Source of the DNA: a virus
Direction: 5' to 3' (one strand)
Virus record (IMG/VR): IMGVR_UViG_3300028610_000244
Span: 33,869 to 97,868 of that record
Length of the DNA stretch: 64,000 bases
Part shown: positions 35,016 to 62,912 of the stretch, piece after piece
How positions within the stretch are numbered: the stretch's first letter is position 1
How the letters are laid out: the number at the start of each line of letters is the position of its first letter
The notes under the pieces: generated by a model
What the model saw: the letters and a program-made list of their open reading frames with translations, nothing else
Told to the model about the DNA's origin: nothing
The model's database searches: none
Program-made: the position numbers and the translations under genes

Positions 35016-35288
35016 CTACGCCGCAGCGGTCAATGTGTAGTAGATGAGCAGAGCCAGCCAAACAGTGTTGGTGGCCGTGACACCTATCGAAGCATAAAAT
35101 GAAAACTTCTGCTGGATTGCTTTGTAGTAGTAGAGGTTCCAGTAACCCCAGCCAGCGAAGAAGCCGACATGGTAAAGGCTCACGCCGGCAACTGACTTGT
35201 CTAACCAAACTTGGATGACGCTCAGTAGGATGAAGAACCCACCGGCCAGCTCGAACACACCGTTGATCTTATCATTGTTGATTTTCAT
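35016..35288 (-). CDS. PQ-loop/SemiSWEET-like three-helix membrane protein
   Basis: Three TM segments with K.V.GVS after TM1, W..Y in TM2 and N in TM3; start MKINN after GAGG. Confidence 0.65.
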   Translation of the reverse strand: MKINNDKINGVFELAGGFFILLSVIQVWLDKSVAGVSLYHVGFFAGWGYWNLYYYKAIQQKFSFYASIGVTATNTVWLALLIYYTLTAAA

Positions 35289-35426
35289 GCAGTTTCCTCT
35301 TTCGTCTGTAGTATGTGCTTCGGCTGATCTGCTCACAAGCCAGCTCGTAGTTCAACTCCCACATCTGGCGGGTTATGAAGCGGGGCCGCGTTGCCCCGCC
35401 CTTTCCATTTGCGGTCTGTCCTCGCA

Positions 35427-37037
35427 TTATGCTCTGTACTTTCCTTTCCAGACGGTAATAATAGTACGCTTGCCGTTAGGGTATGTCACGATATGTGAAT
35501 GCGACCAACTTGATGGGCCTCTGGTGTACCAGACGTCGGACTTAATGTCACAGGATACACCTGCCACATAAATACCATCCTGGATTCCTGCTTTGTGCAA
35601 GTGACCAATGTTGGCTTTGCGTCCCATCCTGCTTAGGTTGGCTGCATTACCACGGGCTCCGTTAGGCCCAAGGGAGCCGTGCATACCGCACTCAATGTTG
35701 GCGTCCGTAATCAGTATACTTTCATCTTCACGCATGAAGTGTGCGATCCGATCTTCCAGGCCGAGCATCCGGCAGGCATGTTCCAAGACATGAAACGTTC
35801 GGCCAAAGGGATCAGCTTCCATAGCTTCATACACGGCAGCATTAAGCTTTAGCCAGATCACGGCATTCTTAGGATCGTCCAGACCTTCACGGCTGTCCAG
35901 CCAGCGTTCAATCCAGGGACGATCATGGTTGGCGTCCACGACATAGGTCTGGCAGAAGTCACGATGTAGGTCACGGAGATGGTCGTTACACGCCACGAAT
36001 TCCTTACGGAGATCATTCCATGCACCGGAACGGACGAAGTTTTGGAACCGTTTATGCAGCGACTTCTTTGACCAATGGTTTGTCACGGACCCAGCCATGA
36101 GATCGTGGACGAATTGAGACTTGGGGCGTAGCTCATCCAGCATGTGCTGAGAACAACGATTGACGCTTTCGTCTAACAGCATCAAGGCGTGAGCGTCACC
36201 CCATGTAATCGCCTCGACATGTTTATTCTCACGCACGACACCTTTCTTAACCACGACATCAAGATCGTAGATTGTGCCGTCGTCTGTAGCGTTCAACTGA
36301 CGTAGCCACCAGTTGCCGTCGCTGTCCACTTCGACAATCACGGCACCGTAGCAGTGATGGAACTCAGCCTTGAGCCCTTCACGCTTCTGGATATAGTTAC
36401 GCTGAGTGACAGTGCCGGTCGTGTAGTTGAACTTGGTGTTCTCTTTCCGTCCGGTTGCAATGGACTCCATCGCAAACTTCACTTGTGGAAAGATTGCACT
36501 GTCCCGGCCCGTGTAAGAATCGAAACCAGTCAAAGGACGAACCGCTGTAGGAAGAATGTTCATCTCACCGCACCAACATAGGTGGTTAGCAATAAGGTGA
36601 CGCTTATCCACAATATAAGGCACAACCTTTTGATCGTACCAAAGCTCTTTCTCCCGGCTTTTGACTTTGCCACGCTTGACAGATAGCCTGCCGAAAGCGT
36701 TTTGGTTGTAGGTGAATGTTCCCACCATCATCTGAGCATCATAGTGCTTTGCCAAAGCCAATAAACTATTCCACACAGGGGTATGAACATGAGTGTTGTT
36801 CTGGGCTGAGGTCAGAATATATCGCTTGACCACGCCACTTTTGGGTAAAGGACATCTTACCGCTTCAATCCCTCGGACACTTCCATCAACGATCTTCTTG
36901 GTCCGATCAATCCCGGCTTTCTTTAGATGATAGTAAATGCAGGCTCTACCAACATCTAAGCTCTTGGCAGCAGCTTGAATGTTGCCTCCATGCTCTTGAT
37001 AAGCACTGACTACTTGCTCCGTTGTTACTTTTGGCAT
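35427..37037 (-). CDS. HTH plus calcineurin-like metallophosphoesterase, resembling T5 A1 nuclease
   Basis: N-terminal HTH; TSAQNNT, TTGTVTQRNYIQK..G.KAEFHH; GDAH, HD, ANHD, MHG, GHLH metal ligands; the A1 match is from recall. Confidence 0.7.
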   Translation of the reverse strand: MPKVTTEQVVSAYQEHGGNIQAAAKSLDVGRACIYYHLKKAGIDRTKKIVDGSVRGIEAVRCPLPKSGVVKRYILTSAQNNTHVHTPVWNSLLALAKHYDAQMMVGTFTYNQNAFGRLSVKRGKVKSREKELWYDQKVVPYIVDKRHLIANHLCWCGEMNILPTAVRPLTGFDSYTGRDSAIFPQVKFAMESIATGRKENTKFNYTTGTVTQRNYIQKREGLKAEFHHCYGAVIVEVDSDGNWWLRQLNATDDGTIYDLDVVVKKGVVRENKHVEAITWGDAHALMLLDESVNRCSQHMLDELRPKSQFVHDLMAGSVTNHWSKKSLHKRFQNFVRSGAWNDLRKEFVACNDHLRDLHRDFCQTYVVDANHDRPWIERWLDSREGLDDPKNAVIWLKLNAAVYEAMEADPFGRTFHVLEHACRMLGLEDRIAHFMREDESILITDANIECGMHGSLGPNGARGNAANLSRMGRKANIGHLHKAGIQDGIYVAGVSCDIKSDVWYTRGPSSWSHSHIVTYPNGKRTIITVWKGKYRA

Positions 37038-37654
37038 TCTTGCTTTCCTTTCCTAAACTTTGCGGGATGATCGACAATGTCGATCCACTTATCCATTTTC
37101 TCTGCGACGTAACTCACGGTGTCACCCGCGTAATACATCTTATCCAATTGATTCCACGGCCGGGGCACCAGGATACCAGCACCACCTGCCCTGATGAACC
37201 TCTCGACATTCTCCTGACTGTCGTCAACAAGCAAGCAGTTGAAGTTGAAGGCGAACTCAGACTTCTCAACCCAGGTTGGCACCATCCGCTTATGCAGCTC
37301 TGGAATCTCTCTGCGAACCCACCGTGCCTTGCCGGTGAAGGAGTCATCATGCTCCATCGGCTTAGTCAGCAACATCGTCTCATTGGGCCTGAACCGAGCC
37401 CACACCTCTGCCAGGATTTCTTTGCCGTCTTCTGTCCACGGCAGATTCTCCCAGAATTTGATGGTGCAGTGCTTGTTCGCCTCATCTCGTGTTGATCCCG
37501 CCAAAGGAAATACATTGTAGTCACTACCGAACGGCCAGTTCCGATCTACCTTATGTGGAAAGCCCAGGGCGGTGAAGATGCCTGTGACGAAATCAGAGAA
37601 CACCTGATCGCAATCGAGATATACTATGTGGTTAGCTTGCATAAGTCTCCTCAA
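37025..37654 (-). CDS. HAD-family 5'(3')-deoxyribonucleotidase
   Basis: YLDCDQVFSDF (DxD), FWENLP, LT.P, K..WV, LVDD...NV, PRPWN. Confidence 0.8.
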   Translation of the reverse strand: MRRLMQANHIVYLDCDQVFSDFVTGIFTALGFPHKVDRNWPFGSDYNVFPLAGSTRDEANKHCTIKFWENLPWTEDGKEILAEVWARFRPNETMLLTKPMEHDDSFTGKARWVRREIPELHKRMVPTWVEKSEFAFNFNCLLVDDSQENVERFIRAGGAGILVPRPWNQLDKMYYAGDTVSYVAEKMDKWIDIVDHPAKFRKGKQECQK

Positions 37655-38400
37655 ATTCTTAACGGTCTGTCGTCAACCCAGTTGCCCTTGACCATGCTGT
37701 CAAGCAACACCTGGGAACTGGAGAGAGCCTTCGACAGATGAGAAAGGCTGCTCTCGTGATCTAGCGGTTTGCCGGCATACCAATCGGCAAGGTGACGCAT
37801 GGTGGCGTCGTAGTAGACGCTGGCTCTGACGCCAACGGATCGGTAATTGTGCTTGCCGTATTTGATCCCACCTTCCATCATACCCAAAGCCATCTCGAAA
37901 ACGACTCGCAAGGGCAGCACATGAAAGGGTGTCTTGGTTGTGATCGGCACCGTGACCTTAAAGCCCAGGGTGCCTTCCTTGAGGTGCGTGAATGGTGCCA
38001 CGCTGGGCGGCAGCTTCTCTATGACTATGCCAGCGGCAACGTTGAGGGCGGCGACATGTATGCCTTTGCTGTCTTTGTTGAGGCGGTCGTCGTTGAGGGT
38101 GTCTTCCAGCTCGGCGTTGCGAATGGCTGCGATCCTCGCCATTGCTCGTGAGAGGTGTGGAATTCTCCAGGTGTCGTCTTGGCCCTCCCAGAACATCATC
38201 AGGTGAGCGACGGCCGCGTTGAATTGCTCATCCGCGTAGACATCAATGGCGTCCACGGGTCGAACCTTTTCGGCGGACATGGATTCGGCAAGCAACACCA
38301 CGGCCTGCGAAGACAGGCAGCTCATCGGAACCTTCTTGACACCGATTGCATCCTTTGGATTACAGGCTTTCTTCACGGCTTGCTTCTTAGACTTCGGCAT
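37651..38400 (-). CDS. dATP/dGTP diphosphohydrolase (DUF5664), two tandem domains
   Basis: NPKDAIG.KK.P; second copy G..KYG.HNYR..GV..SVYYDA..RHL..W..G...D.ES.L.HL...DDRP; degenerate first copy ends DDRL. Confidence 0.8.
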   Translation of the reverse strand: MPKSKKQAVKKACNPKDAIGVKKVPMSCLSSQAVVLLAESMSAEKVRPVDAIDVYADEQFNAAVAHLMMFWEGQDDTWRIPHLSRAMARIAAIRNAELEDTLNDDRLNKDSKGIHVAALNVAAGIVIEKLPPSVAPFTHLKEGTLGFKVTVPITTKTPFHVLPLRVVFEMALGMMEGGIKYGKHNYRSVGVRASVYYDATMRHLADWYAGKPLDHESSLSHLSKALSSSQVLLDSMVKGNWVDDRPLRI

Positions 38401-38463
38401 ACAGCTCTCCTCTATGTATAGACATTCTTCGCAACATTCGGTACTGCGGCATCTCCTCGCCGT

Positions 38464-38718
38464 TTACGAACTAATCGCTTTTGCTATTGCTTTGCCAGCC
38501 GCAACAAATGCTCCACCAACTGCGGCGACTGTTGCTACTCCAATCAAGCACATGACTGCTCTTGTTCCTGCCTTGCCTGTGATGGTTCGAGCCGATCTCA
38601 AAAAGTGCTGATCCGCCTGACAGGCAATTGGGTCCGATACATCAAATCCCATCCTTGTTAGTGTAGATTCCACTGTCTTGTCAATCACTCGTTCCATCTC
38701 GTGTTCAGTCATAGTCAT
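38464..38718 (-). CDS. Small membrane protein (possible holin)
   Basis: G.D..DP...QAD..FLR..R plus a C-terminal TM helix; directly after the tail tip gene. Confidence 0.55.
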   Translation of the reverse strand: MTMTEHEMERVIDKTVESTLTRMGFDVSDPIACQADQHFLRSARTITGKAGTRAVMCLIGVATVAAVGGAFVAAGKAIAKAISS

Positions 38719-38753
38719 GTTACTTTCATTAAGCCTTAATTCAATACTCTATC

Positions 38754-38782
38754 ATTGTATCAAGTCTTATTCCAATTGTCAA
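38754..38782 (-). promoter_or_regulatory. sigma70 promoter
   Basis: TTGACA-N17-TACAAT with extended TG. Confidence 0.8.
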
Positions 38783-62883: not shown

Positions 62884-62912
62884 ATTATAGGACATTCCCG
62901 TCAAGATGTCAA
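62884..62912 (-). promoter_or_regulatory. Consensus sigma70 promoter, near-leaderless terS transcript
   Basis: TTGACA-N17-TATAAT, 9 nt before ATG 62874. Confidence 0.85.

Follow-up and report, generated by a model that had tools for sequence, protein, structure and literature searches.

Here, we report a cassette of predicted DNA- and nucleotide-degrading genes that ends in a gene for a small membrane protein, referred to as TM3, in a 64,000-nucleotide stretch of viral DNA (the window). The window comprises bases 33869-97868 of the 97,868-bp IMG/VR virus record IMGVR_UViG_3300028610_000244, the ends of which are a terminal (assembly) repeat; the source is an uncultured siphovirus-like phage. 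The cassette was located at 68.9 to 72.7 kb of the 97.9-kb record, between tail genes (951-aa tail protein, phrog_1101) on one side and an SNF2 helicase gene and replication genes on the other, and lies entirely on the minus strand, which holds nearly all genes of the window.

The initial annotation, made from the letters of the sequence, had placed here one promoter followed by a membrane open reading frame (ORF), a DUF5664 gene, a HAD 5'(3')-deoxynucleotidase gene, a helix-turn-helix (HTH)-metallophosphoesterase gene and a gene for a protein with three transmembrane (TM) helices. All of these were present at their positions on the minus strand (Table 1), and a further conserved ORF (s51), between the metallophosphoesterase and three-TM genes, had been overlooked. 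The DUF5664, HAD and metallophosphoesterase genes had been described as overlapping, which is true of the last two (11 nt, from the metallophosphoesterase ATG at 37037 and the HAD stop TAA at 37027-37025), while the DUF5664 and HAD genes are closely packed, 8 nt apart. The HAD start is, judged from the bases ahead of it, more likely the ATG at 37642, which is preceded by GGAG and falls 8 nt past the DUF5664 stop.

Table 1. Coordinates in the window of the cassette features and of one additional promoter-like site.
Feature	Position	Strand	Family, motif or basis
Sigma-70-type promoter, immediately past the tail-gene stop	38754..38782	-	TTGACA, 17 nt, TG-n-TACAAT
mem84, 84 aa, one C-terminal TM helix	38464..38718	-	phrog_6420, E 6e-17
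DUF5664-domain protein, 249 aa, predicted deoxynucleoside triphosphate (dNTP) pyrophosphohydrolase (dNTP -> deoxynucleoside monophosphate [dNMP] + pyrophosphate)	37651..38400	-	PF18909
NT5C-type HAD 5'(3')-deoxyribonucleotidase (predicted dNMP -> deoxynucleoside + phosphate)	37025..37642	-	PF06941, phrog_2643
A1 homolog, 536 aa, N-terminal HTH plus metallophosphoesterase, predicted host-DNA-degrading nuclease	35427..37037	-	phrog_1745
s51, 51-aa basic protein (GKGG.TRP...DLNY...), between the nuclease and TM3 genes	35272..35427	-	Conserved ORF
TM3, 90-aa three-TM protein, SemiSWEET-like triple-helix bundle, predicted homodimeric facilitator	35016..35288	-	Fold model
Other perfect TTGACA-N17-TATAAT site, the sole further one in the window, near head and packaging genes	62884-62912	-	

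The HTH-metallophosphoesterase protein had been assigned to nuclease A1 of phage T5 from motif recall, and the assignment proved to be one of true homology: BLASTP against T5 A1 gave 37% identity over residues 71-536 (483 columns, E 3e-89), and phrog_1745 was matched at E 1e-159. The metallophosphoesterase motifs GD281xH283, HD312, NHD372, GxH453 and GH479xH481 were invariant in a six-sequence alignment that included the proteins of T5, Pan1 and Mwe-JY26, and the N terminus matched HTH_8 (E 2e-4). Relatives covering at least 80% of the protein were found in 1118 phage records. T5 A1 is necessary and sufficient for degradation of the host chromosome, and T5 excretes the breakdown products; Dmp, the dNMP phosphatase of the same operon, raises virulence (bioRxiv 10.64898/2026.04.02.716235). 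BLASTP of the 12 ORFs between 32286 and 41634 found no match to T5 A2.

In close relatives of the phage, the exact slot of A1 is taken by a second HTH-plus-Metallophos protein, c9 (380-436 aa; PF00149 in L003), with the DUF5664, HAD, s51 and TM3 genes retained (L003:4684-5850; L006:4652-5821; also L006-8 and L082), and c9 adjoins TM3 in the unrelated contigs L014, L020, L021 and L147 as well. The possibility that c9 is a divergent A1 was rejected: hhalign found similarity in the HTH only (shallow alignments), and c9 was treated as a non-orthologous replacement. Such displacement at the same slot argues for a nuclease role there, and c9 appears to be a second family of phage nucleases directed at host DNA. 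As a separate observation, an A1-like gene of Flavobacterium phage elemoA (L165:4422-4805) overlaps a gene for a MazG-type "phosphoribosyl-ATP pyrophosphohydrolase," a pairing of A1 with a nucleoside triphosphate pyrophosphatase that occurs there without TM3.

The DUF5664 and 5'(3')-deoxynucleotidase assignments of the initial annotation hold by both Pfam and PHROG. The DUF5664 protein matched PF18909 (dGTP_diPhyd_N; E 4.5e-28, 97.6 bits, residues 154-245) as well as phrog_801 and phrog_2252, the latter being its best PHROG. The label "endolysin; inhibits RNA polymerase" attached to phrog_2252 was set aside as a carried-over annotation, the same region matching PF18909 and phrog_801. Pyrophosphohydrolase activity of this DUF5664/dGTP_diPhyd_N type has been demonstrated for proteins of phages Wayne and SH-Ab 15497, and that of Arthrobacter phage Wayne converts dATP, dGTP and dUTP to dNMPs (PMC12884076). 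The nucleotidase matched PF06941 (NT5C) with 27.0 bits, above the gathering cutoff of 24.8, and phrog_2643 ("5'-3' deoxyribonucleotidase") at E 2e-14, and HAD motifs I to IV were all present in its translation (YLDCDQV, LLTKP, GKARW and LLVDDS). BLASTP found no match between this protein and T5 Dmp at E <= 10; going by its sequence, it is a predicted functional analogue of Dmp within the HAD superfamily and not a detectable homolog. Comparison of the nucleotidase, the DUF5664 protein and the A1 profile with PDB sequences found nothing. The predicted chemistry, from DNA or dNTP through dNMP to deoxynucleoside, is well founded by homology, and we infer every one of these enzymatic activities for the present phage.

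TM3 was predicted to start at ATG 35288, which has AGAGGAA ahead of it and gives 90 aa; a start at GTG 35336 is less likely. TM3 had been called a SemiSWEET-like PQ-loop protein, a description that fails by sequence and stands by predicted fold. TM3 had no match in Pfam or PHROG, its profile found none among PDB sequences, and 32 members of the family gave no PQ-loop or MtN3 match in Pfam at E <= 10. The PQ position in the first helix is not conserved (IQ in the window protein; Q, R, K, T or S in the alignment column), and this helix has no conserved Pro. Conservation inside the helices is marked, with WGYWNLYYYP in the second and NTxW in the third, residues W47, G48, Y49, W50, N51, Y54, N74 and W77 invariant in the family alignment, and a mean column identity of 55% across very different phages.

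A TM3 structure was modeled with AlphaFold (AF2) from the 32-sequence alignment and consisted of three helices (predicted local distance difference test [pLDDT], 94.4). The top 10 Foldseek matches were all SemiSWEETs (probability 0.95-1.0; TM-score, 0.66-0.86; root mean square deviation [rmsd], 1.6-3.4 Å; 80-86 columns), followed by cystinosin, the mitochondrial pyruvate carrier and SWEET, and VIA-align placed the SemiSWEET-type structures 4qnc_A (Z 10.9, rmsd 1.6, 81 residues aligned) first and 4qnd (Z 10.4) next, with generic bundles close behind. Look-alikes in the ESM Atlas were viral clusters, and PQ-loop or MtN3 annotation was carried by a minority of their members, a lead only. PnuC was not among the listed Foldseek and VIA matches for TM3 or for the tandem forms described below, an absence from the list that does not exclude PnuC likeness. 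Homodimer prediction gave an ipSAE of 0.60 against 0.00 for the best control, with at least 95% of contacts shared between runs and pLDDT of at least 82; among the solved structures in the tool's calibration, 20 of 30 homodimers and 1 of 23 monomers passed the dimer mark. The predicted dimer is symmetric and parallel, with an interface formed by the first helix, loop 1 and the second helix, including W47, W50 and Y54. Mean counts of Lys plus Arg across the family were 3.1 in loop 1 and 3.2 in the C-terminal tail, against 0.14 in the N-terminal tail and 0.03 in loop 2, which by the positive-inside rule points to an N-out/C-in topology and hence to a cytoplasmic location of any hydrolase domain fused to TM3.

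Clustered at 90% identity, the TM3 family fell into at least 2240 clusters, all of them lacking a Pfam domain; at 50% identity, it had 863 representatives. The family is mostly viral, and the only cultured phages with a detectable copy were Burkholderia phage FLC9 and Microcystis phage Mwe-JY26. Tandem proteins in which two TM3 units are joined by a linker TM helix (3+1+3) made up five 50%-identity clusters (P0121, P0122, P0154, P0155 and P0157). Repeat 1 is more diverged (W..WN.FYY) than repeat 2 (WG.WNLYYY), as in asymmetric SWEETs. The best matches of the tandem model (pLDDT 87) were eukaryotic SWEETs and the KDEL receptor (5ctg, 5xpd and 8apy) and cystinosin, at a Foldseek probability of 1.0 over about 219 columns. 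The VIA Z scores were 11.2, 9.9 and 9.5, while unrelated chains scored no higher than 6.7. On the strength of these models, the step from TM3 to 3+1+3 is predicted to be the same semi-to-full duplication known from SemiSWEET and SWEET.

Natural fusions joined TM3 to nucleotide hydrolases of two kinds. YfbR-like HD 5'-deoxynucleotidase domains were found in P0136 (PF12917, E 8.5e-6) and P0129 (H..HD..D), the latter seen again on a separate contig as the L087 ORF. NUDIX domains were found in P0148 (E 6e-11) and P0237 (E 1.4e-13), which belong to different 50% clusters. Two further fusion proteins, P0132 and P0144, carried a Cys-rich (zinc-ribbon-like) tail in one and a weak Peptidase_C39 match (E 0.0016) in the other.

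The gene neighborhood of TM3 was examined at 127 loci from viral, genome and metagenome contigs (110 after removal of redundancy), with our own ORF calls, BLAST clusters and hidden Markov models built from the loci. Five enzyme families were tallied: A1, c9, HD ("c13"; PF12917 in L022), HAD and DUF5664. At least one of them lay within 1 kb of TM3 at 46 of the 110 loci, a raw count, and at 28 of the 52 loci where TM3 was flanked by 1.5 kb or more in each direction; every best family match listed per locus was on the strand of TM3. Single-linkage grouping of TM3 at 60% identity put nearly all loci into one group and was useless as a measure of independence, and grouping by shared context genes over-merged them too.

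Whether the cassette genes co-occur elsewhere had been proposed as a check, and they do: the whole order is kept at about 14 loci of the window's own lineage, with synteny across roughly a dozen related uncultured phages, and TM3 stands next to enzyme genes in unrelated phages too. In Mwe-JY26, the gene order of the window is reversed: an A1 homolog (38% identity) comes immediately after TM3 (39% identity). TM3 adjoins HD in L017, L018, L029 and L030, HAD abuts TM3 in L035, L056, L105 and L114, and DUF5664 lies near it in L016, L115, L128 and L142. Other neighbors of TM3 included 3'-5' exonucleases, Tet/JBP, DUF7768, DnaB, integrase, GT2 and GNAT proteins. A Tet/JBP dioxygenase or a DUF7768 protein is encoded directly before TM3 at L033:5005-5958 and L014:5138-5992, on two distant contigs, a hint that some members of the family accompany DNA-base modification genes. 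Together, the tandem forms, the hydrolase fusions and the gene neighborhood speak for TM3 being a SWEET-superfold transporter that handles a product of nucleotide hydrolysis. Our literature search found no published description of phage SemiSWEET/MtN3 proteins tied to nucleosides.

The two small ORFs of the cassette were followed in related loci. A homolog of s51 was present in the same place in all related loci, with A1 and c9 alike, and this conservation as a protein indicates a real gene. It contains a strong 7-bp GC hairpin (35380-35399), which was rejected as a terminator, being inside the s51 stretch coding for GGATRP and having no T-tail on the coding strand. The mem84 gene is kept at the same position in the related lineage. 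A relative of it lies directly upstream of A1 in Pseudanabaena phage (cyanophage) Pan1 (Pan1_24; L002:5715-5978), and a homolog in Pseudomonas phage KPP23 (ORF010; L170:3486-3743) precedes an M15/VanY-like peptidase. Because of the KPP23 arrangement mem84 may be holin-like, or it could be a partner of A1; it is not clearly a member of the pathway.

The promoter of the cassette had 11 of 12 consensus matches plus a TG-extended -10 element, and the exact pattern TTGACA-N16-18-TAYAAT occurred twice in the 64 kb against 0.02 expected. Within the cassette, downstream of this promoter, no convincing terminator-like site was found on the minus strand. Searched at near identity, the cassette DNA had no match among cultured phages; several proteins of the phage are similar to those of cyanophages Pan1 and Pam3. 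A Pfam inventory of the 98-kb genome (record 1-34500 plus window 1-32000) recovered a Cdd-type cytidine deaminase, dUTPase_2, an AAA_33 kinase-like protein, SLOG/YpsA-like proteins, a radical SAM enzyme, RtcB, PolA and a clamp loader. PurZ, thymidylate synthase (ThyA) and ribonucleotide reductase were not found in it. For want of support, we dropped the hypothesis that the cassette serves to exclude a canonical base in favor of a modified one. The same inventory contained no recognizable endolysin.

Our preferred reading, which we hold at about even odds, is that the cassette is a T5-style module for the disposal of host nucleic acids, expressed from its own strong promoter and ending in nucleoside efflux through TM3. 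In such a module, the A1 homolog (or c9 elsewhere) would break down host DNA, the DUF5664 enzyme (NUDIX elsewhere) would turn dNTPs into dNMPs, and the NT5C-type HAD enzyme (HD elsewhere) would turn dNMPs into deoxynucleosides in the cytoplasm. TM3, as a parallel homodimer with a SemiSWEET-like pore, would then let uncharged nucleosides (or bases) leave passively down their gradient, and this exit would make the breakdown irreversible. Net efflux is proposed because TM3 is coupled to phosphatases and not to kinases, the converse of PnuC with NadR. The initial annotation had suggested the same route, from DNA or dNTP through dNMP and nucleoside to export; the enzyme identities in it are borne out by homology and the link with TM3 by adjacency and fusion, while Pfam PQ-loop membership of TM3 falls away, and an action on cyclic-nucleotide immune signals gained no support. 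We infer that TM3 is a transporter at all, that it carries a (deoxy)nucleoside, that the net flow runs outward and that the genes act as one pathway. A broader proposal, in which TM3 would be the founder of a large, mostly phage-borne branch of the SWEET/PQ-loop superfold for (deoxy)nucleosides, with nuclease, pyrophosphatase, nucleotidase and pore forming one disposal line, we regard as possible but doubtful.

Several points weigh against nucleoside disposal through TM3. At the level of sequence, TM3 has no link to SemiSWEET, PQ-loop or PnuC proteins, and the PQ hinge motif is absent. The Foldseek E values of TM3 are weak (0.02 or higher), and three-helix bundles are common, the VIA Z of 10.9 for the monomer being near the 9.6 of a designed bundle. 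The dimer prediction may have passed because the model had learned from solved SemiSWEET dimers. T5 excretes its breakdown products without a TM3 homolog, so an exporter is not required for the strategy. More than half of the TM3 loci have none of the five families nearby, with DnaB, integrase, glycosyltransferase and GNAT genes among the neighbors, and part of the linkage between TM3 and the enzymes may come simply from their location in early or replication modules. The neighbor tally has no genome-wide background frequency, which makes the fusions the stronger evidence. Finally, SemiSWEET-type uniporters are bidirectional, so that uptake is also possible.

This last point leads to an alternative in which the enzymes act as described and TM3 is an importer or salvage channel for nucleosides, nucleobases or a related metabolite, e.g., a vitamin-type riboside, as with PnuC. 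Besides the bidirectionality of such facilitators, the phage-encoded PnuC that takes in nicotinamide riboside in NARP3 (PMC13464706) offers a precedent, and the NUDIX fusions could point to NAD or ADP-ribose-type chemistry. Uptake through a facilitator is, however, normally trapped by kinases, as for PnuC with NadR, whereas TM3 is fused to, or lies next to, phosphatases, pyrophosphatases and nucleases, enzymes whose intracellular products are of a membrane-permeant type, and no deoxynucleoside kinase was found among the approximately 50 neighbors and fused forms scanned; we judge import unlikely. We think it quite unlikely that the genes are mere neighbors in an early or accessory module, TM3 being an ordinary SemiSWEET-like carrier of sugar or another solute, or an unrelated auxiliary gene. 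The presence of the enzyme families at fewer than half of the TM3 loci, the diversity of the remaining neighbors and the sugars carried by characterized SemiSWEETs (PMC5972207) fit such a view, but it does not account for independent fusions to two different nucleotide-hydrolase folds or for an adjacency that survives changed gene order and non-orthologous nuclease replacement, and no carbohydrate-metabolism genes lay beside TM3 in the loci scanned, bar one GT2.

The fusions themselves would also be expected if TM3 were a small membrane anchor or a scaffold keeping the nuclease and the nucleotidase at the inner membrane, for example, at the site of DNA entry, and T5 has a small two-TM gene directly upstream of A1. 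Invariant polar and aromatic residues within the TM helices (W47, W50, N51, Y54, N74 and W77) are unusual for an anchor, though, and the existence of duplicated 3+1+3 forms with a SWEET/KDELR fold and a predicted symmetric dimer with conserved Trp and Tyr in its interface also make this role rather improbable. Less credible by far, in our view, is that TM3 is a holin, a pinholin-like permeabilizer or a superinfection-exclusion protein. Its small size and three TM helices resemble those of class I holins, and with no endolysin located by Pfam the lysis cassette of the genome is unplaced; against this, no lysis enzyme adjoins TM3 in any locus examined, conservation inside its helices is extreme, the family has a SemiSWEET fold, 3+1+3 forms and hydrolase fusions, and mem84 is the better holin candidate.

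It has been known for fifty years that T5 breaks host DNA down to nucleosides and excretes them, and we know of no identification of the export step. A SemiSWEET-fold protein that is naturally fused, in other phages, to a 5'-deoxynucleotidase or a NUDIX domain is a concrete candidate for that step. If the disposal reading is true, it would explain how T5-type "scorched-earth" phages shed their breakdown products, possibly gaining the irreversible host shutoff seen in T5, and it would add nucleosides to the sugars and amino acids handled by the SWEET/PQ-loop superfold. The TM3 family is unannotated throughout, and one assay would name thousands of proteins. Bacteria sense m6dAMP freed by phage-driven genome degradation through the Metis and PUA-Cal-HAD systems, and a HAD phosphatase inactivates the m6dAMP signal (bioRxiv 10.1101/2025.11.05.686725 and 10.64898/2026.01.15.699771). 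Fast clearance of dNMPs could thus blunt mononucleotide-sensing defenses, a plausible countermeasure with a speculative link to the present cassette.

The known kinds of system closest to the cassette are T5-type DNA disposal and the SWEET-superfold transporter. The cassette shares with the pre-early genes of T5 (A1 and Dmp) a true A1 homolog (37% identity, catalytic motifs kept), an operon in which A1 is accompanied by a dNMP phosphatase and by small membrane proteins, and the expected products, deoxynucleosides, which T5 excretes. It differs in that the phosphatase is of the NT5C type with no detectable relationship to Dmp, A1 has a Fis-type HTH as its N-terminal domain, no A2 homolog was found among the 12 ORFs around the cassette, and, in the record as assembled, the cassette follows tail genes and lies at no defined first-step-transfer end; the predicted DUF5664 pyrophosphohydrolase and the SemiSWEET-fold protein are both absent from T5.

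For SemiSWEETs and SWEETs, what we take to be the reference set is MtN3_slv (PF03083), PQ-loop (PF04193) and structures 4RNG, 4QNC, 4QND, 4X5M/N, 5CTG and 5XPD. TM3 resembles these proteins in its three-TM bundle, its predicted parallel homodimer through the first and second helices, its conserved Trp and Asn in the second and third helices, and the match of the 3+1+3 model to SWEET. In contrast, TM3 has no detectable sequence similarity to them and no PQ motif, its signature being WGYWNLYYYP; its partners are nucleotide hydrolases and not sugar enzymes, and its family is mostly viral. With PnuC, including the phage NARP3 importer Bas30_87 (PMC13464706), TM3 would share the role of a phage-encoded small-molecule carrier, the wider SWEET/PnuC 3+1+3 architecture, a nucleoside-like compound and the functional coupling to a phosphate-adding or phosphate-removing enzyme of the cytoplasm. 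However, PnuC is an importer of 7-8 TM helices whose substrate is trapped by the kinase NadR, whereas TM3 is a 3-TM unit found with phosphatases and pyrophosphatases, which suggests the opposite direction. The separate HAD and DUF5664 hydrolases of the window differ in fold and in gene arrangement from the YfbR-like HD 5'-deoxynucleotidases and NUDIX enzymes that are fused to, or lie beside, TM3 homologs in other phages, where they are predicted to do the same job.

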